The notes under the pieces were generated by a model. The model was not told where the DNA came from, did no database searches, and saw only the letters and a list, made by a program, of their open reading frames with translations. A stretch of 63,465 nucleotides of DNA, filler included, from Dugesia japonica (lineage: Eukaryota), in the NCBI GenBank assembly GCA_001938525.1. It is 5 parts of 5 records of this genome, joined end to end, with 100 filler letters (N's around TTAATTAATTAA, not from the genome) between each part and the next. Parts side by side here need not be neighbours in the genome. Positions count along the whole stretch, not along the records: positions 1 to 17,108 come from MQRL01645998.1; 4 more parts are not named here. One strand, given 5' to 3'. A program made the translations under genes and the position numbers. Positions 1-53,607 of the stretch are shown here, one piece after another. Within the stretch, counting starts at the first letter, position 1. Each line of letters opens with the position of its first letter.

Positions 1-774
1 AATTAGTTAGGGCGTAAAATTTGTTCAGTTTTTTTGTGAGAGTTTTGGTGTTGTTTTTAACTAAAATCAGGATTATTTTTATACGGTTTCTGATGCAACC
101 CGGCATCATTGTCATTGGGTACTATTTTTAACTTGAAATCTTGGATTTTTATTGGTGTTGGTGTCATGTTTCCAAANNNNNNNNNNNNNNNNNNNNNNNN
201 NNNNNNNNNNNNNNNNNNNNNNNNNNNNNNNNNNNNNNNNNNNNNNNNNNNNNNNNNNNNNNNNNNNNNNNNNNNNNNNNNNNNNNNNNNNNNNNNNNNN
301 NNNNNNNNNGATGGTGGTAAGATTTTCTTCTTAACAAATTTTAATGCTTCTTGTTATTTTCATTCTGAATTTTCTTACCCGGATTCTCACTGATTTTCCT
401 GAACGGAGTTATTTGGGTAAAACAGATTTTTTAACTAATTTTACTTCTTTTTATTTTAAAATTAATTAATATTTTTTCTGTTGATTGATTGTTTTCCCAT
501 AATGATTTTCTTGATTTTTATTATGAATTTACTAATTCTTTTGAATTCCAATACCGATGTAAGTTAGTTTTATGTCACCCGGTTTGTCATATCCATTTCC
601 AATTCTTTTCTAACAGTTATTTCATTATAATCTTCCTAGATCATAATTACTTTTCCTTTTTGGATTTCATTAAGGGTAAAAATAATCGTCCTGCCGTTCT
701 TCTATGCTGATTTTGGGTTTTATGCTTTATTACCTTCCTTTTTTTGTTTTTAAAACGATTGTTTCACCCCAACA
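1..774 (-). mobile_element. 5' part of long LTR (copy A), minus strand, running off the window start
   Basis: Reverse complement begins TGTTGGGGTGAAAC at 774, the same terminus as 13055. The rc of 60-175 (caccaataaaa...cccaatg...gggttgcatcagaaaccgtataaaa) matches the promoter at 22690-22780 (caccaatgaaa...gccaata...gggtgcattcggaaaccgtataaaa). Spans an N gap. Confidence 0.7.
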
Positions 775-1676
775 TATATATTAATCATAAAATGATAATT
801 TTTATTACTAATCTTAAATAATGTTTAAACTTCTCCTGACTCGATAATTGAATGAAATAAAATATCTTGATTATATAATGAAACGATAAAAGGTAATTAA
901 CCCTATGAGAAGTTGTGATAAACGCGAGGTGTTTCCTATCGAAAAGGAATTGTTTGTACATAAGGTTTTGGGTAACAATTCTAATATATAAGATATTTTT
1001 GTTTTAATGAATGTAACAATAAATTAGAGATTATGATTTGTCTTGAATTATTACTTTAGGAAATCGAATATAATTTTAGGATTATTAATAATTATAATTT
1101 CAATAAATCTGGTTAATATTTCGGGATACTTTTATTTAGTTACCATTTCTCTATTGTTAACTTATAGATATTTGTAATAATTAATTATTTTCGGTTAGAT
1201 AAAATATTTAAATTATGATTTTAATTATTATTTTTGATTAGTTTATTGATATTTTGAATAATTCTTTTGGTATTATGAAATGTTTTAATTAAATGTTTTC
1301 TGTTTAAATTTTGATAAGGAGCTCATCTTATAATATACTATTGATTAACAATATGATAATTGATTTTGATCGAGATTTTAAATAATGATTTAAACTGAGT
1401 GCTGTTACTTAAAACCTAGCTTAATAATAATAGACGCATAGCGAAGGAGGAAGTAGAATTCCCTGAAAACAATAAGATATGAAGTTGTCACCGAGGAATT
1501 CTAACTCCTGTTTCGCTGAAGTAATGAAAGGAGAGATCAATTGTAGAGTAAAGGAATTAACGATTTCATGCAACTGTTCATTATTTAAAGAGAAATTGTT
1601 TAGATGTCGAGAAGAATAAATATAGCAGAGGCCCCGAAATCGCTGAATAGATGATCGTTTACTTCCGGAAATTGTA

Positions 1677-2084
1677 ATGAGATTGCCGGTCCTATATGAT
1701 TCATGGGGTGAAGCAGGAACAGATCGAGACCCCTGGTGGGTAACTAAAGATAAAATACGAATAAAAGCCATCGAAATCCAGGAACAAAAAGAGGAGATAC
1801 TGAGGCTGAAAGCTCATGTTAAACAGTTACAAGAGCAGCTTAATGACCAGCAGAAGGATCGACAACAACAGAACACCGCACTAACAGATTTGTTGTCTCG
1901 GGCCAAGGATCATTTAAGACGAGCTCCAACCATCACGGATCGTCAAACGGTGCTGAAGAACAATCTCCTCACCCATAATCAGGCTAATAGAAGAATCTGG
2001 TAACAAATAGAACATGCGATGCCTGTGCTTACAGCCCATTTAGAGACGCTGGAGACAGAGGAGGTAGTGGAATTGGAAGTGTGA
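1677..2084 (+). pseudogene. Coiled-coil ORF in LTR copy D (in-frame stop at 2001-2003, frame continues to ..EEVVELEV*)
   Basis: Heptad-like IEIQEQKEEILRLKAHVKQLQEQLNDQQ; more GC-rich than the flanks. Confidence 0.45.
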
Positions 2085-2366
2085 TAATGTGTATTATTTA
2101 ATATATTTTGAAAATGTCGTTGTTAGCACTTACTGTGAATTCACATAAACTATAAATGATTTAAAATAACAGAATTAATTAAACGATAAACGATGCAAAT
2201 AAAATGTTTAAAACAAACAGGTCAAAGTAAATTGAAATATGATGAAATTAAATAATCCACTAAATAAAGCAGTTTTATCGAAGCAGCCACTCGAAACTAA
2301 ATTATTATAATCATAGCACATATTTGCAAATTAAATTAACATAAAAAATTCATGAATTATTTAGAT

Positions 2367-2714
2367 ATGTCAACCAGGATCACAAAACCTACAAGAGAAG
2401 AGTTGTTGATCAAACAGCAGAATACTCAGACAGAGATCAAGAGATTAAGGAAAGAGAATCGTAAATTGTGAGAGTTGGCAGGTGAAACTAAGATGAAGTT
2501 GTCCACATTGAAAGAAAAATTGAGTGTGGGTAGAAGAAGGGAACTCACACTCATAGCTAATAATCGGATGATGGCGGAAATTATTAAGGATTACGCCGAT
2601 CGAGAATCCGCAGTGCTAGGAAATGTTCGAATTCTATGGAGAGAGTATCATACTCAGAGCGTCAACGACCAAGAAGAAACCATCACGGATAAAACCATAT
2701 TCGGTTCACCATAA
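2367..2714 (+). pseudogene. Coiled-coil mini-ORF exon MSTRITKPTREELL...FGSP (one internal TGA)
   Basis: Acceptor ttatttAG at 2363-64, ATG at 2367, stop 2712-14, AATAAA 2725-30. Confidence 0.55.
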
Positions 2715-4376
2715 ACAGCGATTGAATAAATACTAATTGAGTTCAATGTTGTTTTCTTTCTCTTCGATTTAGAACGAAAATAAGAGGCAGTTTCAACCAG
2801 AACTTTCTGTCAGGAATGGGGGATCGTGATGTAAGAGAAGACATCACAAATTTCTGTGGTTACTAGGTATCATCCCCCAGACAATCGTTTCTTTTAAAAA
2901 CAATATAGCATTAAAAATTTAGATACGCAGGAGTGAATATAGTTAACATCAAAAACCTATTAACTCAACATATGTTTGATTTCAATTTAATTGTTCAAGT
3001 TTTTAAGAACTTATTCTACCACAGATTCACTTATCAGAATAACTCCACATCATTTGAAATAAATTGTGAATTTTTCTTTGATAAATTCCAATTCATACTT
3101 TTCTATGGGTGAAACACCAGATTGAAGAAGAAAATATAACCAGGGGCCCAAACGTTTGTCATTAAGAAAACGTAATATGATACGGAGGAGCTAATTAATA
3201 ATAATTTCGATTTCTGAAATAAAGTACACATAAATAATCGAAAAAAGATCAGAAGAAATACGGTAATGATCGGAAAGTGATAAAGATATAGTAAAAGTAA
3301 TAATAATCGACTGCAATTATGGAAATTATAATTTATATAAATGAAATATTACTAAATATAATTAAAAATAATGAAAGAAAATTAATAAATTATTTAAAAA
3401 AAGGAGAATTAATTATGAAAAAATACGAAAAAGACTGATAACTTGGCTCTAGAACAACAAAAATCATCATATTGAGTAACAATAATCGATGCTACTCCAT
3501 CAACAAAATCGCTCGCGTCGCCGTGATCTTTACTGTATTTATTATTAAAGTAGATAGTGATATTAATTTTATATTAATGATTCTATTATTCATATTAATA
3601 AAATATTACACGACGATTAATATCGTGATTAAATTCATTGTGAGTTATTCCCAATAATCAGAACTTGTTCATTGTGGTGTCCGAGATTATTTCTAATCAT
3701 CTTTTCCTTACTACGACTAAAATTATTAACAATTAGTAGGTCTATTCTTGCCACCGTACTCACTATAACCCTGACGTTTGCATCACATATACGGTCATAG
3801 ACATTAATTTTATTAAATGGCATGAATGTTCGAGGTCACTTGCTATCGTTAAATGCCATTTATTGTACATTTAAATTAATCCAATTTAACACTAATATTC
3901 TCCTTGAGTATGTAATTAATATTTCCTTCAGTGACTGATTAATTATGATTAGAATACTGATCATTATCATTGTTCGGCTAGCCCTATTCATTCGATATTA
4001 TCTCACTCTCATCTATAACTAACTCAATAAAACTCTATTATTCCGAGTCACATCTTTTATTGGTCGACACATAAGCGTTTATCTTGTTTATGTTATATTT
4101 AGTGAAATGGTTTACCAGACGAATAAATAATATCGCTACTGTCTTTATTATAATTGGTTGACTGTATTCCAATTACATCTTTTGAATTAAAGAAGAGTTT
4201 AGCTATGTCTATTTCACGGTTATGAATTCTTTGCTTTGATGTGTTATTGCGATAAATTAGCAGCACGCATCCCGTGCTCGAACTTACGAATTATATAAAA
4301 ATTCACTCCCCATTTGAGCTAGATAATTATTTTTGAGAACTTTATATTACTTTGTTTTTAATCTCTCACCATTTAG

Positions 4377-4589
4377 GATCACGCCTGCAGAATTGTGTAC
4401 CGCGTTGCGTTTAATTCGTAATGAGAGAAAGTCGGCCAGCCTAAATCTAATCATAGGCCATTTACTTTTCCCGAAACTAGTAGAGCATCCTGATAAAACA
4501 GACTTAACTGCATCGAGGAGAGGTTTCCGCTAAAATTTGCGGTTGATATGAATGATAACTAGTTTAATGATTATAATTTTTCGAATAAA
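4377..4589 (+). pseudogene. Cassette exon alpha, copy D (ATG decayed to ACG, frameshifted)
   Basis: PAELCTALRLIRNERKSASLNLIIGHLLFPKLVEHPDKTDL aligns with 24489 MSAELRKALRLVRKQRKTSQLRQLLAHILSRSKVEHPDETDL. Acceptor 4375-76, AATAAA 4584. Confidence 0.65.
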
Positions 4590-4658
4590 AATTGTTATTA
4601 GTGTTATTTGCTGCATATTTATCTATATTGACTTATAACTAATTATTGGTTTCTTCAG

Positions 4659-4989
4659 TGTCCGACTATCGCTGGCGTTTGGTTTTAGACGAAAATATGA
4701 ATCGAATGGTTTTCCAACGTCAACGAAATCTACATAACAGTTGTGCCGATATTTTAGCGGACCGTTCAAACGTGTCCCTCGCTAAAGAAGCCAAGCCTTG
4801 GCACCTCGATACCGTTGAGCGCCGCGCATATCAGAATTGGCCCACAAAAAGCCGGAAGAATACGAGAATGTCCATTCCCCTTCCTCACCTACTTCATCTG
4901 AACTAGAGGTGTTCATGGATGACTTGTTATGGAGTATTAGAAACTCCAATATTAAATCCTAATTTTTCTTGCTTTATTAGTTCAATAAA
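4659..4989 (+). pseudogene. Cassette exon beta, copy D
   Basis: cAG|TG TCC GAC TAT CGC TGG. SDYRWRLVLDENMNRMV..ILADRSNV..WHLDTVERRAY aligns with 24830 MDYVWEILLYVRTNKIV..VLRDNSNL..EWDAFERNTY. AATAAA 4984. Confidence 0.6.
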
Positions 4990-5171
4990 TCTTTATATTT
5001 AGTGTTCAAATAAGCGTTAATTAATTAAGATTTGTTTGATAGAGATTAGATTAAATACTTATGTTATTCGTTATTGAGATAAGTTTGTAAAAAATTGCGT
5101 TATGATAATACAGTATATACTCCTTATGATCTTAAATCGTCACCCTTGTTAATTTGTTTCTCTATCTTTAG

Positions 5172-5531
5172 TGAATTCTTCACGCCATCGATCCGTGGCT
5201 CATCCCAAGAAGGTGCGATACAATAGTGAGAATATATAATTTACCTGGGAGGTCTACTGCCACCTCCAACGCCAAAGTTAAGCGGTATAAAAAACGTTGT
5301 GCTGAATACCGTCTCAAAACAGAAGCCTCTAATATGCAGGAGAGAACTTAGAAAGGCCAGTTGGAAGACTTCACCAACATAATTCAGTCCTTACATGAGA
5401 AGGAAGGTAAATTAGTGACCAACATCATGTCATTACATAATCGCATTCCAATAGACACTCTCTACATCGATAAATCAACCCAAACTCTCACTCTCCAAAA
5501 CTGATGTTGAAATAGTGTAAAATGAAATAAA
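5172..5531 (+). pseudogene. Cassette exon gamma, copy D (coiled-coil, degenerate)
   Basis: tAG|TG AAT TCT TCA. AKVKRYKKRC...ERT*KGQLEDFTNIIQSLHEKEGKLVTNIMSLHNRIP..DKSTQT aligns with 25431 SKVKRYKTKC...DRVWKGQVESFTEIIRSSQDRENKLVDDILTLKEKIP..DKGIQA. AATAAA 5526. Confidence 0.7.
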
Positions 5532-5624
5532 ATTTTGTAGAATTAAACTCTCATTCCGGATTTATAACTTAAAATTTTTGAGCTTGTTCTTTTATAATTT
5601 AACTATGACTGATGAATAAATTGT

Positions 5625-7870
5625 TATAAAAAAAGCTTTATTTAACAATACACTTGGATGACTAGTCCATGGTTTAAGTCCGAGCAAGTATAGACAAGTC
5701 TGTAACCTAAACCTTTTTCTTTTATCAATTTAACTTTTTTTCAAACAGCCAAGTTCCAACAAATCTAGCTTAAACATCATAAAAGAGCAGTACAATCAAT
5801 TGTATTGTATCTGGCCTCGTTGATCATATGATCCAGAAAAATGCGATTGCTGGTTTTGATGACTTTTCTATAAGAGCAAGTGCAATATGCTTTATTTCTT
5901 TGTTGTTGAGTCTAATTGCCTTGAAAGCTCTTTGGTTTGCTGGATCCCACGATCCCAAGGTACAAAAAATTATTGCATCTAGTGTAACCTCTTTGCGGTA
6001 CTTGGCCCCAAGATCCTTTCGAATTTGCTCATATTTGATTTGGTTATCTATTCTAACTTTCTTGAAGCCTTCAATAGAATCATAAAGTACTTTGACATCC
6101 AAAATGTGAATCTTGTTGTTCCTATTGCTTGTAATAACCAGATCCGGTCTCAGCTTGGTTTCAAGGCCTTGAGGTTATCAATCATACTGTACGTCAAAGT
6201 CCCATTTTCTGAATATTAAGGCCGTCTTTTTCAGAATTCTGTTGTTTTTATTGTACTTCTGGATTTTCATGACTGGGAAGTGATTAAAGATGTGCATTTG
6301 TGTCTCTTCATAAGTACCACACTGTCTGCAATGAGTAGTCAAATTCATTTTAAGCCGATAAGGGCTGTAGTTAGTGCGGAGAAGGTTGTTTCTTGCTCTT
6401 ACAATAAATAAGAAATCCTTCTCTGTGACATTGATTTTTTTCATGAATTTGCTACTATAATCAAAAGCAAGAATAGTATTTGCGACGAGGCCTTAAGTGG
6501 AGAGTTTGAACCAATGTTGATAGTAATTAAAACCAATCTTTTTGTGTAGGGCCTTGAAGATCATTGATTTGAAGTCATTATTGAAAATGATACTTATTTG
6601 ATGAGTATAATAAGCCAAGCCAGTAAGACGTAAGGAGATAAGGTTTTTATCTCTATAAAAAGTGACTTTTAGCTTATGGGCTTCTTTGAGTCTGTTGACG
6701 GCTAATCTAACTGTAGTCCACCGGGAGATGACTACATCAGCTTTGTCCCGAGAGATAATGTTGTAAACACAGTCGAAACATTTGTCCAAGGATAAGTTGA
6801 CCACTTTACGAAAGCGATGTTTACCAGTAAGCTCTAATTCGCTAGTGGCAAATTTTCTGAATATTTCGGTGTTGGAACTTAGTGTTTGTATCAGTCCAAA
6901 TCCACCAAGATTGGATGATAAGTACAGGAAAACATTGTCATGGCTGGTATTAGGAGCCTCAGTGATTTCTTTAATCATTTTCTTGATGATTTGGTCATAG
7001 CCAGGTTGANTTTCTCCTTGTCAATAATAAGAAGTTTTTCTCCATAAATTTGAATTTCATTAGAGATGAATTGCCGGTTAGAAGTGAAGTAGCCACATTT
7101 GCTGAGTATGAATTTAAATTGACAAATCTCAGAGAGACCAACTATATGATTTATTATTGCAGCACTCTTTCATTGGTTATTTGTCATAAGTACGAGATCA
7201 TCAGCATATGTAAGTATGGCTGTATTAAAACCAGAGTTTATAAACGGAAACTTTGTTGCAGTATCCTTGATTAAGAAGTCAATAGTAAGGCTGAATAGAG
7301 TCATTAACATAGGGCATCTTGCTTAACACCTTTGCGAATTGCGATATCGCCAGTGTTGATATCGAGACAGCTGTAACTAGTATATACATCAGTGTAGAGA
7401 TCTCTATGAAAATGAATAGTATCACAGTGAAGACCCATTTTCTTGAGAGTATTCCATAGTAATTCATATGAAAGACTTCGAAAAGCATCAGCAAGATATA
7501 GCCAAGTCAGATAAAGATTTGGTTTTTTTCTTACTGCTTTTTCTTTGATTATTTGGTGTTGTGAACAGCCATGGAAGACATTGACAGCATTCTGAGTAAT
7601 TGAGAGAAGGCATCCGTTCTTTATCCATTGAAGGAGACTGTAGTTCATATATAATTGCAAAGATTCTGTATGAGATGTCTAGAATAGCAATTAGTCTCTA
7701 TGATAAAAAAATGTGAGAATCGTCTTCCTTTCAATGTTTGAGTATAAGAGTTGTCTGAAAGCGTTTTCATTGGTTTCGGATATCCTTTTGTTTAAGAACA
7801 TTGTTAAAGAGTTCTTTAAGAAAGCTATGACTATTGTCTAGTTTGATCCAGTCTGAGTAGCTGATCTTGT
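5625..7870 (-). mobile_element. 5'-truncated NeSL/R2-type non-LTR retrotransposon (RT + CCHC + restriction-like endonuclease), degenerate
   Basis: RT motifs (WLYLADAFRSL, RKGVKQD, GGFG), CCHC-like HCRQCGTYEETQMHIFNH, RLE RPDLVI..ILDVK, and TLGSWDPAN. Short 3' UTR with AATAAA near 5640 on the minus strand. Confidence 0.85.
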
Positions 7871-10800
7871 CAAATTTCACATCTTGGTTCACTGATGTCG
7901 ATATTGATTGCTATCTTAGCAAACATATCACCAATACTCAAGTTAAANNNNNNNNTCCTTGCATTGTTCAATTCATAATTGCATATTATAATAAACCTAG
8001 TACACTTTCCAGAGTTAATATTTCGAAAGCTAAAACTATTCTTTGTCTTGTAAATATTGAGAATATGCATTGGATTCTATTTGTCTGTCCTATTCAACAA
8101 ACTGAAAATAACTCATTTAATAAAATAATCTAAGAAAAACTTAAAACAGTTTTCAATTTCCTATCTACTATTGAAGCTAAACTAGTTCATCATTCATTGA
8201 AAAACTTACAAGATCAGTACAACAACTATGATTTGCGGGGCATTCACTTGTNNNNNNNNNNNNNNNNNNNNNNNNNNNNNNNNNNNNNNNNNNNNNNNNN
8301 NCCTATGCAATTCTTATACACAATAAATTAAGATCATTACCAGAAAACGTTATCAACGATATTCGTACAGAAACTTATCAATTAAAAATTAAAAGTGTTA
8401 ATAATAAAACAACAGAAAATAATGGTGGTGGTATTCCGATAATTAAACCCAACAAAAACAACTTAAAAACTAACAACTCCTCTAATAAAGATCGGGACTA
8501 CCAAACTCTGCAAAAGATGAAGCCTTGCATAATGACTCTACTTCAATATTGGTACCTCAAACATTTAGACTTGTTAATCTTATCTGAAGATCTAACNNNN
8601 NNNNNNNNNNNNNNNNNNNNNNNNNNNNNNNNNNNNNNNNNNNNNNTAAACATAATTTCCAATAATAACTCGTTCATTATTGATAATGTGTCTTTTAAAG
8701 ACTTTGTAAATGTTGAAAACTTAATTTGTGTTATTCCAAATGTTGATTATTGGTGGCTATTAATCTACTCTTTGAAACTTAAAGTCTGTCATATCTTTGA
8801 CTTTTGTAATGAACCTGTTTTGGATCGTCTAAATGCTATTGGAAAAAATAAAACTGACTACCTTAACGTATTTTTCCTTCAAAGGTCAATAAAATACAAA
8901 TGTGAACATGGTTTCAATCTAATTAATTTCTCTTCAACTGATCCAATTTACTTTGCAGCTGTATTTATTGTGCAAACAGAAACGATGTTGTTCAATTGCA
9001 GAATTAACAATACAATTGTGTATGATTCATTGCATGAACTGAATGAAAAAGTTCGTGACGCTATTACACCTTCTCTTAGCTTGATTAATGGCAACATAAA
9101 CGATAAAATTAGTCAAATGTATTTCAACGTCCTCAATTTGCCGATCACGTCTATGCTATTGAGAACTACATTGTGTACTGCAATCATAAAAAACTCATTA
9201 GAATACTTAAAGGATTTTCTTGACATCGAACAAGTCTGTTCAGCAACAAAAATTTTTCGCAGTTAAATTTTCTTTTAAATTTTAATGCCCGTTTTTTTTA
9301 AAAAAGTTTTATGCCCGTTTTTTAATTTCTTTTAAATTTTTATGGCCGTTTTTTAATTTCTTTTAAATTCGGAAAATATTCTGAAGATAAGCTTCAAATC
9401 AAATTTGCATAAATCATATATAAGCAAAAATCAAAACAAGACTGAATCAAATAAATATCAGCTCAGATTTCCATTTTTGACTAACATGAAACGGACTGTT
9501 ACAAAAATATTAAACAAAAACAATATACAATGTAATTCAAATCTTGAAGACATTCTCAGTCATTTTAANNNNNNNNNNNNNNNNNNNNNNNNCTGGGATG
9601 TCATATTAAAAAGCTGCAAAATATCAGACATGCAAGTAAGCTTCGAATCAATTAGCGAAAACGAAGTACTCAAAGATATCAAAAAAGCTGATAATTCTTG
9701 CCCTGATCAAGATTGAATTTACTATAGAGATATTTTGCGTTATTAGATCCTGAAGGCAAAGAACTCACATTACTCTATAACAGAATATTTGAATCAAAAA
9801 CTATTCCCAATAGCTGGAAAACTTTCAAAACAATTATTATTTACCCAGGTAAAGAAGGTCAATATGAAAAAATCTCATCATGGAGACCAATTACACTACT
9901 CTCTGTCATTTAAAAACTATTTGCTGTTATTTTAGCAAGGCGACTAAGCTGCTGAGTAAATTATAACAATCTCTTACACGTCAATCAAAAGGAAGATTTG
10001 GAATTTTAGAGGTTCATTGAACACAACTCAATTCTAACAGCTGTCTTAGAACACACTAAATCTGGTAAAAATCGTCCAATTGCGATTGCATGACTTGATA
10101 TAAAGAATGCTTTTGGTAGTGTTCCACACTGTTACTTATGGTCATTGCTACAATATATTGGAGTTGAAAATGACTTTGCTAACATCCTAGAACTCTTACA
10201 CTCTAATACATCCTCATTCTATACTTGTAGTTCAATAGTCACAACAAATATTCCAATCAAGAGAGGAGTCAAACAAGGCTGTCCATTACCTATGATTCTA
10301 TTTAATTTGGCAATAAATCAAATTCTCCAATCAATTTCTGCATCCGACACAAAACTTTATCTGATAGGTTAATCAAAAATTCAGATTCTTGCATTTGCGG
10401 ATGATTTGGCAATCGTTGCAACTAATACTGAATACCTTAATAAAATAATAAATATAGCAATAGAAACTGCAAGAATCCTTAAATTTGAATTTCGTTCTGA
10501 TAAACGAGCTTATATTCAACTACCTCAAACCAATTTCACCAGCAAAATCTCTATAAATGATAAGAAAATTAAAAAATTAGCTACAAAAAAATTTTATCAA
10601 TATCTTGGCGTTCTGATCTGAGATAGAAATGACCAAAGTACTTTTGAGAAGATACAACAAGTCATTGATGATTTAACAAAAATTGCTGATTCAAACTTAC
10701 TAGGATGGCAGAAGCAAAAGTCATACAAAGTATTCCTACATTCTAGACTCACATTTAAATTCCAAACTCGCGAAATCAAATTAGCGCCCTTAGCAATCCT

Positions 10801-11850
10801 CAGAATAATCCAAATGTCAGTAACAACAATATAAACAGTATATAAATATATACTGTATATAGTATATAAACAGTATATAAACAATATAAACAATAACAAC
10901 AACCAGTAAAGTTTGTTTCCAAACTAAAGCCATCTCTAAATGAATGTCTCAAATGGATAAATAGGAAAAAATCATTGAAAAACTCAAATGCAAAGAAAAC
11001 GCACTTTCAGCAAATAAGAACTGCAATGAATTTTTCATGAGGATTCATGATACAGATATATCGTTTAATGTACTTAATAAAGAAATAGTCCTTTATATGA
11101 TAAACAAGACAAGAGGAACCTATATTATTACTCATACCTCTCGTAAAGAAATTTCAAATATCATTCACAACCTACACTTTGATTCATACGCTGAAAATGG
11201 AAAAAGAGCAAAGTAAGCAACTTGATATTCACAACCATTCAATTGAGCCCTATTATTAATAAAATGATTTTCAAAAGTGACCTCAATGAATTTTAGTGAA
11301 ATTTCATTCTTAGTGCACAAAGAATTTCTCTATCAATACGTGGTAGATCCTTTTATGAAATAAAAAACTGTCGGCGCTGTTTTACTGAAAATGAATCTTT
11401 ATCAAATGTTCTTCAAAAATGCAAAATGAATCAGGCAATAGCAACTGAAAGACATAATGCTTGCCTTGATATTATTGTCANNNNNCTTAAGACCTCAAAT
11501 GCTATTGTTGAGGTTAATAGAATAAATAAATATATTTCAGATTCTAGGGAAAGAGTGGATGTTACAGTAATTAATGTTGAAAAAAACAATATATCTAATT
11601 GACGTCAAATGTCCAATAGACTCCAAAAAGAATTTTGAAGAGTGTAACAAAAAAATTCAGAAAAATATGATCTACTAAGAACTAAAGTGACAATAGCAAA
11701 GCCTGACTTTGAATTAGAATTACAAACTTGCATAATTGGATCCCTTGGCTCAATTCCAACCACAACCATCCGAATTCTAGAAATAATTATCGAAAACAAA
11801 AATATAATTAAAAAAATATTAAAAGAGTGCTCCAAATCAAATATAGCCTN
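7866..11850 (+). mobile_element. NeSL-clade non-LTR retrotransposon with N-terminal Ulp1/C48-like protease domain(s), degenerate
   Basis: WFTDVDIDCYL, HWILFV and QDQYNNYD(fs)CGAFTC (Ulp1). RT motifs WRPITLLS, LDIKNAFGSVPH, GVKQGCPL, LAFADDL, YQYLGV. CRRCFTENESLSNVLQKC zinc knuckle, RVDVTV..IDVKCP endonuclease, IIGSLGS. Confidence 0.85.
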
Positions 11851-12080
11851 NNNNNNNNNNNNNNNNNNNNNNNNNNNNNNNNNNNNNNNNNNNNNNNNNN
11901 NNNNNNNNNNNNNNNNNNNNNNNNNNNNNNNNNNNNNNNNNNNNNNNNNNNNNNNNNNNNNNNNNNNNNNNNNNNNNNNNNNNNNNNNNNNNNNNGTTAT
12001 GTTTAATAAATTTTATTATTATCAATAATAATATGACTCAACATCGGTTTCCTCACTATTTCTAGAACCCATGATAATTT

Positions 12081-15000
12081 TCAGATACTTTTTTTCTTGA
12101 TAAATATTGAGTGTAATTGACAACGTTCTCTGATAAGTTGTATATCATCTTTGGGTAAAGACTTGAGTCGGTCAAAATTCTCTAAATTGTTTAAAAAGGT
12201 GACAAAGAGTCCAACTGTCTCAGTTTTATCAGTTAGGCTGCCATTGTATTTGAAAAAATTGAAAACGTTGTCTAGTTCCAACTTTGCAAAGGAAGCCAAA
12301 TCATTTGAGAATCTTTGTATTCTGTTGATGATTTCGTTGGAGGTTTTGAGAACGTATTCTTCCATAATGGGATGTCCTTTATTAAAGGGATTTTTTGTCT
12401 TTGGTCTAAAGGTTGCTTCCGCATATGAGATAAATTTTGATTTGAGGTGGATGTCAGAACTTTCAGCTGTCAAATTGTTGGATTTGATAATTGAAGCAAC
12501 CCTTTTAGTANATGAGTATCTAGCTTTTTCAAAATTTGTTATGTCCAGAAGATATTCTAAATTCAATAGATGTAGCAGGATGTTAATTTCCCAAGGTTTG
12601 AATTTGTTACCATCTTGGCCTACGAGAAATTTGAGGAAGTCTTTGTTGATTGTTTTGATTAAACTAATAGTGAAGGTAGATGATTTGGAAGATTTCTGTT
12701 CAATGATCTTTAGGATTTTGAAGAGTACATTTTGATAGAATAGGTTTCTTGTATGACTATGATTTAAGAGATTGAAAATTTTAGATTTTGGAAATCTACT
12801 ATTTAATTCTTGATATTTTTTTACGTTTTCATAGGACATATATTTGTTATAGATATGTTTTTCGTTTGATACTTTTTCAGATATCTCTATTTGAGCATTT
12901 GCAGCAAGAGCGGATTTGTTGAAAAAATGCGTTTCTGTTTTATTTTTACCAACCTTCGGTTGGCGAAAACTTTTGGCATCTAAAATACTATGAGTATCTG
13001 ATAATAAAGAAACAAATTTCTCTTTATTTTCAGATATTTTTNANTTATTACATTTATTGGGGTGAAACATTTGAGAATGGAAAATAAACCAGCGATTAGG
13101 TACACCTGAAATTTAAAAGAATGTCACAAGAAAGAAAACGAAGAACACAGACAAAAGAAGGAGTTAGATCAGTTACCGAAAGGAATAATTGAAGAAAACA
13201 TCGAAATAAAGGAACTAAATATGGGAAATGATCCGCAACCTAGTGAGTTACAAAGGAAGAAAAGAAATGTTGGGAGACAAAAAGCGGACTGAGAGAACAA
13301 AGAAAGGAAAATTAATAACGTAAGAAAATAATTCATTAAATAAAAGAAAGAAAGTCAAAGGNNNNNNNNNNNNNNNNNNNNNNNNNNNNNNNNNNNNNNN
13401 NNNNNNNNNNNNNNNNNNNNNNNNNNNNNNNNNNNNNNNNNNNNNNNNNNNNNNNNNNNNNNNNTTTTGGAAGAAAATAAAATAAATAATTTATTTATTT
13501 AAATAAAATAAATCAAACCAATTAAAACAATTTAATTTTAAAAGAAAATTAAATATTTTGGGAAATATGGAAAAAAAGACAACTTTCCATGGCAAAAAAA
13601 TCAGCAAATAAAAACATTATGGTCCGGCAAAAATAGGAAATTTTAAAGATTCGAGTTAGAAAATCATAACGAGACTCAGAAAAAAGATACAAGGGTTTGA
13701 AGATGGACCAATAACTTTGGAATCCTAAAATAACCAACCATAAAATGAACTCATGTGATGTTCAAGCCAATAGAAACATTAGAAAAATCGTATGATGTTA
13801 AGTAACCAATGAAAGGAACGAGGGTGTAAAGAAAAACAGTATAAATACCATTTTAATTTCAGAAAAAAACTATTCATAAAAATTTCCTAAGCGAAAACTG
13901 AAAACAAAGTCGATCAAAAAACTTTTGAAACCAGACGTTAAACAACTTCAACTACAATTATTACTTAAAGGTAACCTCTTATTACCTGATTTCTACAATG
14001 GTTTCCGACTCAAAAGAATCTATCAGAAAATAATTGAAGAAGTGAATCATGAAATGATTCCCTATGTGCTTGCTCCAGATCGATATTGCAGTCCACGCTA
14101 GTTTTTAGTTTTATTGATGTAATTTTAAGTTAGTGTGTAATGGATGGAATTAGTAATATAACTTTCCATAACCATATTTCTTTTATTTAATATAGTTTTA
14201 TCTTAATTCTTTTGTTAAACTGATACCTTTAATTAGAACTAAAATGAGCTCACCTCGTTANNNNNNNNNNNNTATGTAGAATGATAAGTTAAAAATGTTC
14301 ATTAATGTATCTCCAGTAAAACAAAACTGGAATTTTAATATGGTTTTTCTCGGTTAATTTAACTCCAATCTTAGAAAACTTATAATTAATTCCGATAAAA
14401 ACTAGATAAAATGGTAAAGCCAACTAAACGACTCATAAAATGTACTGAACAATATAAGGACTACTAAGAAAGTAAGCAATATAAATCAAGTATGATTTAA
14501 AAATCACGCGAGTATCACGAAGTATAACATAAAGCAAAGGAATGCGAGTCTGTACTCGGACTCCGAGTCAACAGCTCCATTTAGAAGATCTGGAATTTTG
14601 AGGACACCAGATTAAATTCTTCGCGGGGTTTTACTAGGCCCTAGACTAAACTTTCTAAAGGATTAATCCACCTAGGTAAAACCCCAACACATTTTTCAGA
14701 TATTTTTGAAGTTGTATAGCTCGATACAAAAGCATTTGATTAGTTGAACAAATATTTTCTTGTTTCACGAGTTATCTTCGTTTCTTATAAATTAAGGGGA
14801 ATGGTGAACCCGAATTAAAGGTACGCGAGTGTGAACTCCAAATAAGCGTTGGGAGTCAACGACTCTATACCGAAAACCTAAATGAGGGACTTTAGGTAAA
14901 TTCTTCAAAGGGACCCCTGAGAGCTGTCTTTTCCACCAGCCATATTTTTCAATCACTAACTCAGGTGGAACCACAACACGTTTATATTGCTTTGATGTCA

Positions 15001-15260: not shown

Positions 15261-15589
15261 ATATTTAGATAAAAATGAAAAAATGAGTTTTTTCAGTCTA
15301 TATTTTTTTCAATAAAAATTACATTTATATTCTAATAAAAACTTTTCTCTATAATAAAATTTTATTTTATTAAAATACCGTTTTAAACCAATAAAATCAT
15401 AAAGTTTTTAATTTTAAATTATATTAAATTTTTTGAAAAACCTATAAATAACAAAAATTGCAAATTATTTTACTCTGATTGTGGAATAAATTTTACATCT
15501 TATTTGTTTAGACAACTTTTTACTTTATTAGGAATAAAAAATCATCTACATCATATTTTTTATCTGCAATCAGATGATTTGATAAAGAG

Positions 15590-16170
15590 GACATTTAGAA
15601 CGGAATATAAAGGATTGGATCAAAGTTTTACCGACAATTGAATATGGTTTGAGAACTACTGCCCATAAAACAAGAAAAGGATTGGCCGTATGAAATTATA
15701 TTCGATCGCAATTCAAGGCTATAATTTTGCGATATTTCTAAAAACAATGATGCTGAGACAATAAATTATGAGCAGTTTACATTTAATCTACAAAGTAAAC
15801 TAAAATTGATACAAGAAAAGTTAAAAAGAATGTTGAAACAATGATCCATAAAAGAGCAGAAAAGTATGATAGAACAAGATTGAATAAGAAACCAAATATG
15901 GAGGATAGGGTAATGGTAAGAAACGAACACAGAGAAGGATTTGGTCAAATATTTATCGGACTCTTTATTATTAGTACAAATAAAAACTAGTTGAAAAGTG
16001 AAGTGTCAACAAGTAATACAAAACATTTATAATCTGATCAAACACATTCCGTAAGTTATCAACATCTCAAAGTACAAGTATTCAGAGAATGAGAGGAACA
16101 AACAAACAAGTTAGTAAGAACAAAATATCCAACTCGCTCTACTAGAAATTCAAATTTCAAATACAGATAG
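15590..16170 (+). mobile_element. Gypsy-type integrase C-terminal fragment, degenerate
   Basis: DWIKVLPTIEYGLRTTAHKT..PYEIIF.R matches the integrase W..LP.I..LR...H....SPYE..FGR motif. Confidence 0.6.
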
Positions 16171-21195: not shown

Positions 21196-21446
21196 TACTT
21201 TGGTTGACAATATCGCAAGTCTCAATAAATATTTCTTTAACCACAAATTGTTTTGGTTTATGTTGAAAGTTAAAAATGATGAATATTCAAACAAATTAAT
21301 TCTCATTAATATTTTAATGAAAAAGTGTTTTAAAACATAACCAATCTACTTTAAAATTTCAATATTTAAAATCTTTCTTAATATATTTTACACAAAATAT
21401 ATTTTAATATATACTCAATAATTTTAATTTTCGATAATAATTTTAA

Positions 21447-21635
21447 CACGTTCACTGCCAACTACGAGAAAAACCTCGTATAAGATGTTTCATTTATTGT
21501 AAAATGATTATTCTTTTTGTAATTACGTATGAGACTGTTAGTTGAAAATATATGATATTTATTTCAAAGATTAATATTTATATTCGATGTGACTTGCAGG
21601 TAAAAAATATAAAATTGTGTGTTGCAGCGAATGTG
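21447..21635. mobile_element. piggyBac-like MITE
   Basis: TTAA on both sides; TIRs cacgttcactgccaac / gttgcagcgaatgtg. Confidence 0.7.
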
Positions 21636-22137
21636 TTAATTAATATTTTCAAAATCGACAATTGAAGAAATGCCAAAAATAAATACTAAAGAATTTTAAT
21701 TACAAATGTTAACAAACAATAATAATTTAAAGCTAATCTATAAAATTGAAAAATTTCATATGGCCAGAGCTATTTCTTACAATAATAATCATCTTATACA
21801 TACAAAATATTTTTATGAATTAACCTACTCTGATAGAGGTTTTATTGATCATATTGATGCTTCTATTCATAGAACGTTGGTTACCCAGGCCGCATAGTTC
21901 TGTAAGATCACGAACATTAGTGTCAAAATACGCTACACTATTGTCTTTACAAATACAATCGATCTCAATAAGTTCGATTGTTACCGGACACTCTGAAATG
22001 TAAATAATATATTCAAACTGCAAAATATTATAAAATTGATTATCAAAATAACACAAACATTTCATTAATAATCAATTAAAATTAATAGATGGGTGGTAAC
22101 AAGCTTTACCAAAATTAAATATTAAATTCGTTTAAAT

Positions 22138-22441
22138 TAGGCCTGGCCAACACGTGCCCAACGTAATTTTTTTCTGACACTAATTTCTTTTTTTTTTTAA
22201 AAATATATTAAATGAAAATTGATGTGTTTCCTTGTTTTTCATGTGAATATATTTTTTCTAATGTAAAAAAATTTTAAAATATATATTCATACAATTTTTT
22301 CTTTTAAAAATAATAAAAAAAATTTTAGATTTTGGATATTACTTACTAAATTTAAAAAAACATTTATTTAAACTTATTATTTTATTTTATTTATTTATTA
22401 AATAAAATTACACGTGAAGCCATTTAGGTTGACCAGGCCTG
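22138..22441. mobile_element. hAT MITE
   Basis: TIRs taggcctggccaac / gttgaccaggcctg; perfect 8-bp TSD gtttaaat. Confidence 0.85.
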
Positions 22442-22689
22442 GTTTAAATCATATACAGTTATCCCTCGTATAACGCGATAAAAAATCTCCAATTTGGAAG
22501 TAATTATAAATAAAGCCTAGTAAAGTTAATTCTCTATAAACAGTGCATTACACAGGGTTCTTGGTGAGCGTTATATAGGAGTACTTCTATAACGCGTTTA
22601 CCAAAAAAACTAAGGAATGACAATCACATGTCACTACAAAAATAGCTACCAACAGAATCTCTAAAAATATGTAAAAATTTCAGAAAACT

Positions 22690-22785
22690 GGCACCGACAC
22701 CAATGAAAATTGAGTGCTTTAAACTAAAAATAACCAGCCAATACAAAACAAATTGGGTGCATTCGGAAACCGTATAAAAGCCAAG
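22690..22785 (+). promoter_or_regulatory. LTR promoter: two CCAAT boxes and TATA box
   Basis: caccaatg, gccaata and ccgTATAAAAg, with spacing conserved in copy A (rc 77-175) and a similar layout in copy B (13706-13846). Confidence 0.6.
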
Positions 22786-23248
22786 TGAAAAACACACGAA
22801 AAAAACAACAAAAAATTTACCATTTATCTCTGCTTAGCTAATATAGTAACTTTGTGAAATTTCTAATTCAATTACTCAATCAGAAATATAACTATCGATT
22901 AGTAAGTTCACATTCGAATAAACCAGTATTTGACAATATTATTCCGATTTCTAGTAAAGAAGTGTTGCTACTCACAGTAGCAAGAAGAACGACAGGAGAA
23001 ATTTTCTAACAGATTAATCAAAGTTAATTACCCACTAAACCCGTTGCAGTTAGTTCTATTCTTGACAGTAAGCCTATGTTTATTTTATATCTAGTTAATT
23101 GTATGTCATGAATGTTGAATAATTTAACAAAATATAAAGAATTAAAATCGCCACTTTACTGCGTTATGATTTTGTTTATTCCGTTATGTAATGTAACCAA
23201 ACATTAAATTATTAATAATATGCTCTTCACAAATACCTGTTTCGACAG

Positions 23249-24320
23249 TGATTGTTTTAGGTCCAGATCACAACGTGTACGATCTCATAAACTGCCGTGA
23301 GTATGAGAAGGAAATGTACACCCCAAAATACTGGTGAGTGCGGATATGTGAGATTAATTTCATTATAATTCTACATCTATTTTTTTATCAGAGACCAGAT
23401 GGCAATAATCTATGATTTTGAGCAGTGGTTAGAGAGAAAAGAATTTGCGATAATTGACCTCACAACATGCAAAATTGCACACCTACAATTAAGGCCTGAC
23501 AGTCGCACGTATCATTTCTGGCTGTTTGCTATAGATTAATATTAAGCCTCCACAATCTATAGCGTACTACACAGCAGTCATATCGGTTTCACTCTAGAAA
23601 AAATTAAATAAGAAGCTTCTAGTGATGATACTATCAGGTTAATCAGGCTAACTAAGATTGAGTCATCAGTTATGTTTCATTCCCTAGATCGGAATTAGTT
23701 TAATGTCAACGCTAAGTATTCTTAATGCTATTTAATCTAAGTTCTTTTTAAGGAAATCTCCATTTCTACTAGTAAATCGGTTGGTATTAGCACTATTCTA
23801 GTAATATGACCAAATGTAGCAACTACTTCGTTATCAACAGATTCATTATTATGGCTGTCAGGATTTTTTACAGATACAGTACCACATTTCGTATTATCCT
23901 GAAGTCGTTTGCATTAATAATGAAATGACGGAGATTGTTAGTAGTATTTTCAGTAGTTAAATGGCGAGTGAAATTTGAATGTTTGCCCGTATTGTATTAG
24001 CTACACCCAGGTTATGGTCCAGTGATTCTCCTTTTTGTTTATCAATATTTGTGATGAGTATTATTAACCTCTTATTTTTAAAATTCTGAGAGTTACTATT
24101 GGGAATGTTGTTCTTCTCAGACAAATGGAACATGATATTATAGATATTGCCAATAAATTAGTTAATGCAGTTAAAGGTATTATTAACTGCACCCAGCTTA
24201 TTCCTAACACAGGTATCCCTATCATCCCGACCACTGGCATTATTAGGATTTATTATGACTAATATTATCAATATTGTTATTAATTCTTGGTATTACTATT
24301 ATTATTAATATTAATACCAT
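23249..24320 (+). pseudogene. First, longer cassette ORF of LTR copy C (has an internal intron at 23334-23391, multiple stops)
   Basis: cAG|TG ATT GTT TTA GGT CCA opens (M)IVLGPDHNVYDLINCREYEKEMYTPKY. After the gtgagt..tatcag intron the frame continues (junction codon TGA) DQMAIIYDFEQWLERKEFAIIDL. The 3' limit is uncertain. Confidence 0.45.
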
Positions 24321-24488
24321 GTGAGTAATATTATTATTATCATGGGAGTGACTAACCTAAGTTTACTTCCATCCTATTATTCATATACCAGTATAGTGAG
24401 CCATGGTAATCAGTCAGATAATTGTTTAATTGAATCAAATTATGAATATATCTACATTGCTCATTTTAATCTATAATAATTTTAGTTA

Positions 24489-24683
24489 ATGTCAGCAGAA
24501 TTACGAAAAGCACTACGTTTAGTCAGGAAACAACGTAAGACCTCTCAATTGAGGCAGTTATTGGCCCACATCTTGTCAAGGAGTAAGGTGGAACACCCCG
24601 ACGAGACAGATTTAGCGTGTCTAACTGAGATATTCCCACTGATAACCAATGTAGATTTAGATGATGAGGACATACTCTCTTAA
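24489..24683 (+). CDS. Cassette exon alpha, 64-aa microprotein (intact ORF)
   Basis: Acceptor tttAG 24484-85, ATG 24489, TAA, AATAAA 24712; homologue at 4377. Confidence 0.6.
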   Translation: MSAELRKALRLVRKQRKTSQLRQLLAHILSRSKVEHPDETDLACLTEIFPLITNVDLDDEDILS

Positions 24684-24829
24684 GGATTTTCGTTATATTA
24701 GAATCGGTTATAATAAATTTATATGAAAAGTGTTTGGTTTCTTTTATTTACAAAAAATTCTTTTTTTATTATAGGTATCACCTTCAATGTTATGTTAAAT
24801 TAAAGCATGTTTTCCTTTATTTATCAGAA

Positions 24830-25177
24830 ATGGATTATGTATGGGAAATCCTTCTCTACGTACGCACAAATAAAATCGTGTTAAACGTTATTACAATCCC
24901 CATGATCGAAATGAAGGGAGTGCTGCGAGATAATTCCAATCTGGCGCCCCTCGACGCTGATAACGAGCGCGAGTGGGATGCCTTCGAACGGAATACGTAC
25001 TACGAACGGAGAGGTCCCGATAGGACTCAGGAAGTGCTTCATCGAACTACTGTATTAAATCCAATAACCGGTGAGTCTACTAGCGAGTGGCGGGACGATC
25101 CGACGCTTTTACGCTTGTCAGCCGCACCCTTACCACCCAATCCTGGTGCAACTGCCGACATAGGTAACACACTATGA
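24830..25177 (+). CDS. Cassette exon beta, ~115-aa protein
   Basis: Acceptor tatcAG 24826-27, ATG 24830, AATAAA 25288; homologue at 4659. Confidence 0.6.
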   Translation: MDYVWEILLYVRTNKIVLNVITIPMIEMKGVLRDNSNLAPLDADNEREWDAFERNTYYERRGPDRTQEVLHRTTVLNPITGESTSEWRDDPTLLRLSAAPLPPNPGATADIGNTL

Positions 25178-25430
25178 GATCTGCAAAATAGCGCAAGCGG
25201 TGGATCAGCCGAGAATAATGCTCCCTATTCGGAAAATGGGGCGCACTAAATGTCAAGAAATCCTCTGACTTAATGTTTTATATGAATAATAAACTTGTAT
25301 GTAAATTGCAAATTAATTTAATTTTTTTCCTTTCATTATCATTGTTACTCCGTCAATGTGATGCGGATATTAAGATATTTTTTAGACTCGTAACTTAAGT
25401 TGATAACAGTCGTAATTCTTCTCGTTTTAG

Positions 25431-25786
25431 TGAACTCTTCGCTCAAGAAGTCATCTGCCCCAACTATGAAAATGCGAGACACCCAAGAGGACCAAGAAAT
25501 GACTTGGGACCTCTACCGGTTGGCCAAGAGGCGGTGGGAGGCTGAGATACCGAATTCCATAAGCAAGGTAAAACGCTATAAGACCAAATGTCTAACCTTT
25601 AAAAAGGAAGACGATTCACACAGCCAGGATCGAGTCTGGAAAGGGCAAGTTGAGTCTTTCACCGAGATAATCCGTTCCAGCCAGGACAGAGAGAATAAAC
25701 TGGTCGACGACATACTAACTCTAAAAGAAAAGATACCCCTCGCACCCCGTATGGGGGACAAAGGAATCCAGGCATCATGGCTGTGA
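25431..25786 (+). CDS. Cassette exon gamma, ~118-aa coiled-coil protein, predicted split start A|TG
   Basis: ttttAG|TG AAC TCT TCG; open to TGA 25786; AATAAA 25804; homologue at 5172. Confidence 0.6.
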
Positions 25787-25903
25787 ACTTTGTCCAATTC
25801 TTTAATAAATAATTTTTCGACTTAATTTTTCAGATGATTCTTGCATTTATATTCAATATATTACTTTAAGTAAAAAATAATAGATTAATGTCATCCTATT
25901 TAG

Positions 25904-26264
25904 TGCCACGAATAACCTTCCCCAATAGTCTAAAGCAATGTCACCGGATTATCCGACGATTATTATTAGAGCGTCACCTTAAATGCCGATCTGAGCGAGA
26001 GTTAATGAAACATCTCGCACAACGAAATAGGCTTATAAAAAACTAGATCTCATAGTTAAGAAACAGGGAGATCTAGCCGAACAAACGAGATAGCTCCTTC
26101 AAAATAAAATTGATTTTTTGAAAAGGTAAATTGCAGATTTATCTCGTCAGCTTGGTAATGCGTCCTGGGTACAATAAAACGACAGTGATGACGAAGCTGC
26201 GTTTAATTTTTTAGATGACGATCCCACCCAGCGGTTAGACCCGGGTGCTATGGATCTCATGTAG
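25904..26264 (+). pseudogene. Cassette exon delta (basic helical N-terminus, acidic tail), degenerate
   Basis: tattTAG|TG CCA CGA opens (M)PRITFPNSLKQCHRIIRRLLLERHLKCRSERELMKHLAQRNRLIKN*; tail DSDDEAAFNFLDDD..MDLM*; AATAAA 26332. Confidence 0.5.
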
Positions 26265-27964
26265 TGTGTTATAAAATATAAATTAGTTTTAAAGATTTGT
26301 TAATTGATTTTGAATATAACATAATAGGGAAAATAAAGAACCCAAATTAAAGGTGTACGAGTGTGAACCTCCCGTAAAGGTTGAAGGTCAACCGATCTAC
26401 ACCGAAGATCTAACTTAGGGGCGTTAGATTAAATTCTTGAGGGGGATCCCATGAGAGCCGTTTTCCCCGGCCAGCATTTCCTTTTCATTATCAACTCAGG
26501 TGGAACCCCAACATTATTATTATTATTATTAAAATTATAATTATAATTATAGTAAAATAGGCAAAATAAAACTTTAAATAAAATAAAATTAATAATGTGA
26601 CAAGCCAGAACAAAACATGAAATAATAATTAAGAATCATATGGGGAATAATAGCAAATTTGTAAATGAATTCTAAAATGAAAGAATAATAAAATTAGTAA
26701 AAGAATGCTTCAATTACTCAATTAAATAGTTCGAGGAATGGAAAATAATAGAGATATGAATGCATTAACGGTGGAATTGTAAAGATTTATAAAATTAGAT
26801 AAATAATAGAGTAGAAATACACAGAAACAATGAAGCAGAATCTAAAAGGATTTATAATATTAATTAAAATGAATTTATAATAATAATAATATATTAAAAA
26901 AAATAAATAAAATTACTTCGAAAATTGACGAGCCGACCAAAGTAAAAAATGAAAATGAACAACTATGTATTAATTATTTATTAACTGATTGACTGTTTGA
27001 AAAGAGTAAACAATGGGGTCTCAGTAGTTTTCGACATTCAATAAAGAACGTGAAAGGAAAGGAAACACCCATCAATCATCAAATCACAGAATAAACAAAA
27101 AAATCTCTTTTTAGTATGCATAGAGTAAAAAATAAGAAAATCGTTTAAAAATAAAATTAAATATTTTATATTATGGAAAAGAGTTAATTTAGTAAAAATA
27201 TTAATTATATATAAAATATCATGTATATAATAATATAAATAACTATGAACATAAAGATGTTCATAGATCAATTAAAGAGGTATAATATTAGATTGTAATA
27301 TTGAATAGGGGGTCAAGCAATGAAAATGTAAAAAAAGTGATAACTTTATAAAATAATATAAAAATTAAAAGTATTTGTTAATCAGGCTCAAAACTATTAT
27401 TAAACATGTCAAACTAGATTTTAATATTATTATGATGTACATAATAATGTAAATAGCCATGTTAATAAAATACAGTTATATTAATCTAAATATAACTTTT
27501 ATTAAAAAATTACTAAACGTAAATGGAAAAGGTATCATGACAAAGTTGTGAATAAACACAAGCAGGGATCATTTTAAAATAAAGATGTCAAAAATTAACA
27601 AATCTAAATCGGGGTTAATTATAATAATATTCACAAATCGTTTTAAAATTACGAGAAGTTATTCTTACAGATGATTTTTGGGTTTAGCATTATAGACGAA
27701 ATTGAGCAATTAAACTTAAAGGAAATAACAAAATAATATACCTAGTTAGTTTGAGGAAGATTATAGATTAGTGTTATTAACAATTTGAGTATTATAAAAT
27801 TATTGGGGGTCAAACCCGAGCCCGATAATTGAAATGAGAAATAGAAGTTAATGTGCGACCAATTAAATAGTAGTGTGATCAACTGATTTTATTGGTTCTT
27901 TGAACATTAAAATTTTATCCTTGCTTACATTTTATTTGAGAAATATTTTTATTGATCATTATGT

Positions 27965-53377: not shown

Positions 53378-53607
53378 AAAAGGGTAGGAACCATTGTACT
53401 AGGCACGTTGTTAACCAGAAAAGGGTAGGAACCATTGTACTAGGCACGTTGTTGACCAGAAAAGGTTAGAAACCACTGCACTAGGCACATCGTTAACCAG
53501 AAAAGGGTAGAAACCACTCTACTAGGCACGTTGTTAACCAGAAAAGGGTAGGAACCACTCTACTAGGGACATCGTTAACCAGAAAAGGTTAGAAACCACT
53601 GCACTAA
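53378..53607. repeat. 41-42-bp minisatellite, about 5.5 units
   Basis: aaaagggtaggaaccattgtactaggcacgttgttaaccag repeated with no spacers. Confidence 0.95.

Follow-up and report, generated by a model that had tools for sequence, protein, structure and literature searches.

Protein-level selection on three small open reading frames of a multi-copy mobile element family in Dugesia japonica

Selected accessory open reading frames (ORFs) are already known in LTR retrotransposons, namely sORF1 and sORF2 of the MDG1 group, additional ORFs of plant elements and the extra ORFs of Burro. In other retroelements, extra ORFs that are conserved in U3 or near the 3′ terminus, some of them made from spliced mRNAs, share the single polyA site of the LTR and usually number one or two. 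The sORF1 and sORF2 of Drosophila MDG1-group Ty3/gypsy elements are described as 70–110 amino acids (aa) long with low dN/dS, and an internal polyA site is reported to yield a short sORF1 transcript, sORF1 being nuclear (bioRxiv 10.1101/2025.03.14.642691). In errantiviruses of the springer subclade, the env 3′ exon is described as joined to a leader that gives the AU of the start codon (PMC12992720). The CERV of C. elegans Cer1 is reported to be a new protein, made from a spliced mRNA, that exports unspliced RNA (PMC10309623). The planarian giant gypsy element Burro/GYPSM1 has large terminal regions and accessory ORFs (PMC6431247), and its giant polyprotein is described as containing BIR, MATH, BCL2 and env-like domains.

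We compared these systems with three small ORFs, named alpha, beta and gamma, that occur in two copies (A and B) in the window, that is, the whole stretch of Dugesia japonica DNA analysed here (63,465 nucleotides, filler included). Like the MDG1 sORFs, they are short, selected and probably accessory ORFs for which AATAAA-type internal ends are predicted. On the other hand, the MDG1 sORFs are described as unspliced and located upstream of gag, with sORF2 a membrane protein (bioRxiv 10.1101/2025.03.14.642691), whereas the ORFs here number at least three, lie at the 3′ end and have an acceptor-like site and an AATAAA apiece, with no transmembrane segment in any of them. The single transmembrane helix of MDG1 sORF2 and of FAST-like fusogens is absent from alpha, beta and gamma, and a retroelement Env, a large glycoprotein with a signal peptide and a transmembrane anchor, is likewise unmatched by products of 64–117 aa (copy B) lacking such a segment. 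A leader-completed start codon would be common to springer env and this locus, the leader supplying AU there and, as predicted, A here (PMC12992720); springer env is described as one large membrane glycoprotein, whereas the products here are several, small and soluble, each with a predicted polyA site of its own. The layout proposed below would face the same export problem as Cer1, but CERV is reported to be large and multi-domain with a tested function, whereas gamma is small and any such role for it is speculative (PMC10309623). A possible likeness to Burro/GYPSM1, compared by description, lies in large terminal regions, accessory ORFs and a probably common host group; the Burro extras are domains of a 4873-aa polyprotein or an upstream ORF, and the available part of that account mentions no 3′ cassette array (PMC6431247). 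An array of unrelated small ORFs, each with an acceptor and a polyA signal, was not found in the literature searched, with Repbase and the primary Burro paper lying outside that scope, and the element family itself may well be annotated already. Our verdict is that alpha, beta and gamma are real, selected and unexplained proteins in an unusual layout.

The preliminary description had matched the three ORFs between the two copies, and the match holds in order, position and strand: all lie on the plus strand, within 4377–5531 in copy A and 24486–25810 in copy B (Table 1). Between the copies, 21 of 40 alpha residues are identical, a score attained by none of 2000 shuffles. The gamma C-terminal part has 32 of 72 identical residues and the N-terminal part, read in another frame of copy A, has 11 of 28, each unattained in 500 shuffles. 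Beta is marginal (16 of 54 residues identical; 2 of 2000 shuffles), and its 3′ half fails to align between the copies (z −1.8). When 120 small-ORF pairs in the window were compared, just four homologous alpha/beta/gamma pairs stood out, and no paralogy among alpha, beta and gamma was detected in these 120 pairs. The cassette homology between A and B is invisible to nucleotide BLAST. Copy A is a decayed copy, while the three ORFs of copy B are open. Alpha A lacks a start codon at the homologous place and breaks frame near 4505–4510, and gamma A has stops near 5236 and 5349 in addition to its frame break.

Table 1. Positions of the cassettes, candidate signals and element parts in the window
Feature	Copy	Position	Strand	Remarks
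Alpha	A	4377..4563	+	Decayed; open to 4533, homologous tail in other frame; acceptor AG ends 4376; AATAAA 4584
Beta	A	4659..4906	+	Acceptor ends 4658; TG exon start; no ATG at ORF start; AATAAA 4984
Gamma	A	5172..5504	+	Frame break near 5258, two stops; acceptor ends 5171; TG exon start; AATAAA 5526
Alpha	B	24486..24683	+	Open; own ATG 24489; 64 aa; AATAAA 24712
Beta	B	24828..25177	+	Open; own ATG 24830; 115 aa; AATAAA 25288
Gamma	B	25431..25786	+	Open; 117 codons from 25433; TG exon start; basic; two long helices predicted; AATAAA 25804
Candidate leader donor	B	22902..22907	+	GTAAGT preceded by A; no ATG in 22773–22901
Possible cassette C1	A	1604..2003	+	Acceptor-like site; GC-rich ORF in pieces; AATAAA; coiled-coil-like; no partner in B
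Possible cassette C2	A	2365..2714	+	Acceptor-like site; GC-rich; ATG 2367; one internal stop; AATAAA 2725; coiled-coil-like; no partner in B
Possible small ORF	B	23399..23539	+	46 aa; acceptor-like site; no partner in A
Possible small ORF	B	24121..24262	+	ATG 24125; 45 aa; acceptor-like site; no partner in A
10-nt direct repeat, left	A	5595..5604	+	Candidate target-site duplication of the insertion splitting copy A
10-nt direct repeat, right	A	14355..14364	+	Pairs with 5595..5604
8.75-kb insertion	A	5605..14354		Minus-strand LINE-like remnant; nested plus-strand RT-bearing LINE remnant, about 8230–11830
End block	A	14786..14978	+	About 74% identical to 26315–26513; conserved ATTAAA and GT-rich tract; two shared hairpins; ends in CA
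End block	B	26315..26513	+	Short (TTA)n run follows

In the 194 codons aligned between A and B, identity at codon positions 1, 2 and 3 is 0.55, 0.65 and 0.30, with an overall pN of 0.41 and pS of 0.81. The pS is saturated both in alpha (0.98, with pN 0.32) and in the gamma C-terminal part (0.84, with pN 0.39), and beta has a dN of 0.89 and a dS of 2.05. Among the 80 identical residues, 51 are encoded by different codons in the two copies. A protein-guided alignment is biased toward a coding-type pattern, so four ungapped diagonals were also used; there, third positions take 88 of the 176 mismatches (binomial p 4e-6). The coding frame has 0–1 stops per diagonal and the most identities, and the shifted frames have fewer identities, all eight with stops in at least one copy. 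In dinucleotide shuffles the spacers score z −0.1 to 1.6 between A and B, and on the same scale alpha reaches 7.1, the 5′ half of beta 3.7 and gamma 8.5. Purifying selection on unknown proteins, as proposed earlier, would be contradicted by spacers as conserved as the ORFs and by substitutions free of third-position bias; instead the spacers resemble shuffles and the third positions are near saturation. Together with the kept first and second positions, this codon pattern supports the view that protein-level selection operated while the A and B lineages diverged.

An acceptor-like YAG (12–15 pyrimidines of 19) precedes all six ORFs within about 11 nt of the conserved start, against a background of 5.5 such sites per kb per strand. 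An AATAAA follows within 30 nt in five of the six (background 10% per 35 nt), a count in which the ORF ends of alpha A and beta A were chosen post hoc; the first stops of these two lie 51 and 78 nt from the AATAAA. The term ‘exons’ of the preliminary description has these sequence signals on its side; no junction read was seen. The splice phase would be the same in both copies for beta and gamma, and differs between them for alpha. The three exons without an ATG start (beta A, gamma A and gamma B) all begin with TG, compared with 30 of 686 background sites; gamma A and gamma B are homologous, so that this amounts to two independent events. No TG start is present in the exons with their own ATG (alpha B and beta B), nor in alpha A, which has lost its start. 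Thus, if the last base of the leader is A, splicing would give the ATG-less exons a start codon, made of A plus TG at the junction. The candidate leader donor in copy B (Table 1) is the single GTAAGT preceded by A in 21200–25430, where its rate of 0.06 per kb gives about 0.27 expected by chance; the true donor may sit in a 5′ leader outside this stretch, if this is an LTR element. No strong donor is present at the ORF ends. The GC content is 22–25% in the spacers versus 41–49% in the ORFs.

Further possible cassettes are listed in Table 1. C2 was considered as a gamma paralogue and rejected, its score being reached by 484 and 431 of 2000 shuffles. The small ORF at 23399–23539 has a strong donor ahead of it, at 23334, and a contig of sequencing run X9 begins at 23405.

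Downstream of the cassettes, A and B share a 190-nt end block (z 18.5), and the distance to it from the gamma stop is 522 nt in A, with the insertion discounted, versus 529 nt in B, which makes it likely that the two copies represent a single type of element ending at this block. Their right ends stop at an identical CA, beyond which the flanks are unrelated, and a (TTA)n tail is present after the end block of B and absent after that of A. Within the insertion splitting copy A, an RVT_1 match (E 1e-8) lies at 10094–10369, and the two LINE remnants match each other by tblastx; the 10-nt direct repeat taken alone is weak, being equalled by 95 of 1000 controls. The insertion also includes a 343-codon minus-strand ORF at 12084–13112 with no Pfam match above the cut-off, which has a weak second copy near 29502–29747.

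The end-block hairpins contain five double-change pairs, a level reached by 1 of 300 column shuffles, by none of 300 relocated-substitution controls and, in a pair-shuffle control on the two sequences, by 26 of 500. Folding energy of the block is no better than that of shuffles (z 0.38 and −0.40), and Rfam gave no match in 1–30000. A coding role was rejected (mismatches by codon phase 8/8/9). The block looks like an R-U5-type RNA element, as judged from its sequence. A 180-nt LTR confined to the end block is disfavoured, since the conserved ATTAAA leaves no promoter room.

The preliminary description had called A and B LTR copies. Their membership in a multi-copy mobile family stands and the right end is defined; LTR identity is plausible, and no left end, primer-binding site (PBS) or target-site duplication (TSD) was found for either copy, nor a TGG-type PBS after 14978. 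Purine-rich tracts occur near 14795, 25870 and 26325, none of them decisive as a polypurine tract. The 4-nt TSD candidates are at chance level, and they and TG starts are too common for a left end to be chosen (13 between 16200 and 24400). The divergence between A and B is too great for them to be the LTR pair of a single insertion. No gag or pol linked to the cassettes was confirmed in the window. A decayed plus-strand stretch at 15387–16100, 400 nt past the end of copy A, resembles by eye a gypsy integrase core and C-terminus; Pfam, PDB and protein searches gave it no support. Homologous repeat pieces at 1–176 (minus strand) and 22679–22860 (plus strand) are partly alike in translation and have a common TATA-like word; the piece lies just left of copy B, is inverted at the window edge, and may be part of the element or of some other repeat. 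The AT-rich composition and the microsatellites of the window fit a triclad host. Elsewhere, the window contains a 357-codon intronless ORF at 37163–38236 (plus strand; 7tm_1, E 6.5e-11), likely a host GPCR gene, a BRCT-domain exon at 55973–56260 (plus strand; E 6.6e-7) and a 600-codon low-complexity ORF at 59581–61383 (minus strand), both likely from host genes. The window also has small dispersed repeats whose ends are inverted, together with a tandem array of 41 nt, at 16364, 17284, 39166, 46001 and 57853 and at 22142–22442, 22455–22595 and 53378–53647.

Part of copy B is contained in 11 of 24 sequencing runs, none of the 11 being listed as RNA, and contigs or reads of four of the 24 were aligned, to copy B 22860–26560 only. 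Run X3, whose kind is not on record and which behaves as DNA, has 2392 contigs matching this region at 85–100% identity (cut-off 85%), many of them at 85–99%, and single contigs have a depth near 8–10. The summed X3 depth, a relative measure and not a copy number, is about 80–140 in most 5′ bins, 290–470 over alpha and 44 just before gamma, then 3400–8300 over the gamma core, 500–1250 over 25836–26207 and 18456 in the end block, with the last bin partly masked; at this cut-off, copy number and conservation both contribute to the depth. By this pattern, the end block and the coding cores occur in far more relatives than the spacers do, gamma most of all and beta not at all. A unit of at least 3.65 kb is multi-copy in X3, supporting the location of alpha, beta and gamma in a multi-copy mobile family. 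Near copies carry one-base indels in beta.

In the raw RNA of run X13, 41 of 13.6 million records match; they come from both strands and fall almost entirely on the gamma core and end block, and none is at least 95% alike. Run X16 gave no matching read, a result that carries no weight as a test. The few, diverged reads of X13 suggest that relatives of the element are transcribed at a low level. The listed contigs of run X9, whose RNA nature is a guess (it may be DNA or genomic-type RNA), are 90–96% alike over 23405–25090 and 25351–25510, and they span all three acceptors unspliced. No splice junction was found in the 41 matching X13 reads or in the listed X9 contigs, a pattern that counts against the splicing model or is at best neutral. 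One X9 contig has a T-rich loose end at 24032, where either a transcript from the minus strand may have its tail or priming may have occurred internally on a run of genomic T.

The products differ in charge, alpha being near neutral, beta acidic and gamma basic (pI 9.4), and none has a transmembrane segment (top 19-residue Kyte-Doolittle mean 0.75, 1.27 and 0.26, respectively). Pfam gave no significant match for any of them. A search of large protein sets with gamma B and alpha B, limited to candidates of near length, returned three for gamma B, none at E<=0.01, and none for alpha B. HMMER with gamma B over 1.84 billion representatives gave a single match, P0001, an opossum tandem-repeat protein, which we rejected as a homologue because it is a sum of weak helical matches (best single stretch 14/52). 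PHROGs and the Atlas offered nothing usable, and scans of viral and metagenome contigs found no relative. Low-confidence single-sequence folds model alpha as three short helices (pTM 0.39) and gamma as two long helices (pTM 0.34). Fold searches with these models gave no match at E<=0.001 and a best Z of 6.3, ordinary for a helical bundle, an outcome that shows neither novelty nor difference of fold. The earlier statement that no domain is recognisable agrees with this lack of a homologue, family or fold in the libraries searched. By eye, gamma has a basic stretch followed by a heptad-like stretch, which suggests a nucleic-acid-binding dimer. The function we prefer for gamma is speculative and rather unlikely: as the basic helical and most widely common ORF, it would regulate the element's own RNA in the manner of Rev or CERV, perhaps via the conserved hairpins.

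The explanation we consider probable takes alpha, beta and gamma for accessory genes, kept by selection, at the 3′ end of an LTR-type retroelement; they would serve as mutually exclusive last exons for one leader while unspliced RNA reads through. A single short leader exon from the element promoter would be joined to one of several acceptors; the mRNA would then stop at the AATAAA of the cassette chosen and encode one small protein. RNA left unspliced would extend as far as the structured end block and act as the genome, and an element with several internal acceptors would have to export it. PolyA sites on the sense strand within a retroelement require read-through, which counts against this proposal. 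We infer the splicing, the polyadenylation, the junction-made start, the LTR identity and the orientation of the element.

With the same genes and splicing, two placements within the LTR-type reading compete at not quite even chances. The cassettes may lie inside the U3 of a multi-kb LTR, A and B being solo LTRs, as the preliminary description held; this comes close to an even chance, with no pol upstream of B in the window, an X3 depth that is even from 22860 to 25340 with contigs extending past the left edge, and Burro elements reported to exceed 30 kb with an internal region of up to 25 kb (PMC6431247). Alternatively, they may occupy the env position of the internal region, before an LTR of about 600 nt starting near 25885 in B and 14410 in A, a placement somewhat below even: X3 depth climbs 5–10 fold in the non-coding stretch from 25836, a TATA-like site lies at 26034, and a TG follows an A-rich tract at 25889. 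Both placements suffer from the mixing of copy number and conservation in the depth and from TG starts and TSD candidates that are too common. The rise in depth toward the right end, the (TTA)n run after B, the conserved 3′ hairpins and the missing left end would also fit a non-LTR element (LINE-like or otherwise 5′-truncating) whose long 3′ region holds the cassettes, the hairpins acting as the reverse transcriptase recognition signal and (TTA)n as the tail. LINEs truncate at the 5′ end and use 3′ stem-loops. However, copy A has no such tail at the same end, both copies stop at the same CA, and neither cassette set has a LINE ORF linked to it on the upstream side within the window, so that we consider this reading unlikely.

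Segmental duplication of a host gene family, made up of small genes in tandem or of domesticated transposon genes, could account for gene-like signals at each ORF and for three ORFs that are open in B although the silent sites between A and B are saturated. This is improbable in view of the hundreds of diverged DNA contigs with substitutions and indels, the sharp common right end, the lack of any X13 raw RNA read at least 95% alike, and ORFs that are not paralogues of one another (120 pairs tested). We give even less weight to the three ORFs being remnants of one longer ORF or constitutively joined exons: their common strand and order would fit, with the junction data silent either way, but each ORF ends in a stop followed by an AATAAA and an AT-rich spacer, strong donors are missing at the ORF ends, and the alpha phase differs between the copies. 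The acceptors might instead receive a trans-spliced leader that supplies the start codon. If the AUG is the last triplet of that leader, it would be out of frame with beta and meet an immediate stop in gamma, in both copies. The reading frame would fit for alpha B, and flatworm leaders are reported to carry an AUG able to open ORFs (PMC9851317); on balance, trans-splicing is very improbable.

In its fullest form, the preferred reading of 3′ accessory genes in an LTR-type element would describe an animal LTR retrotransposon family whose accessory programme resembles that of complex viruses: one leader and between three and five alternative last exons, all with separate polyA sites, some with junction-made starts, and encoding new, unrelated microproteins. 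Cassettes would be gained and lost between subfamilies, and gamma and the structured RNA end would be kept family-wide as regulator and target. We regard this full form as doubtful. The layout predicts the position and phase of the junctions, a junction-made AUG and 3′ ends at three separate places. Recent reports ascribe biological roles to the accessory ORFs of LTR retrotransposons, as in the cell-to-cell spread by sORF2 and the RNA export by CERV. If true, our proposal would show a way for a retrotransposon to accommodate many small genes while keeping its genomic RNA intact, and would amount to a virus-like accessory protein set in a jumping gene. It would also provide new candidates for element–host interaction in stem-cell-rich animals whose PIWI silencing can be turned off experimentally.
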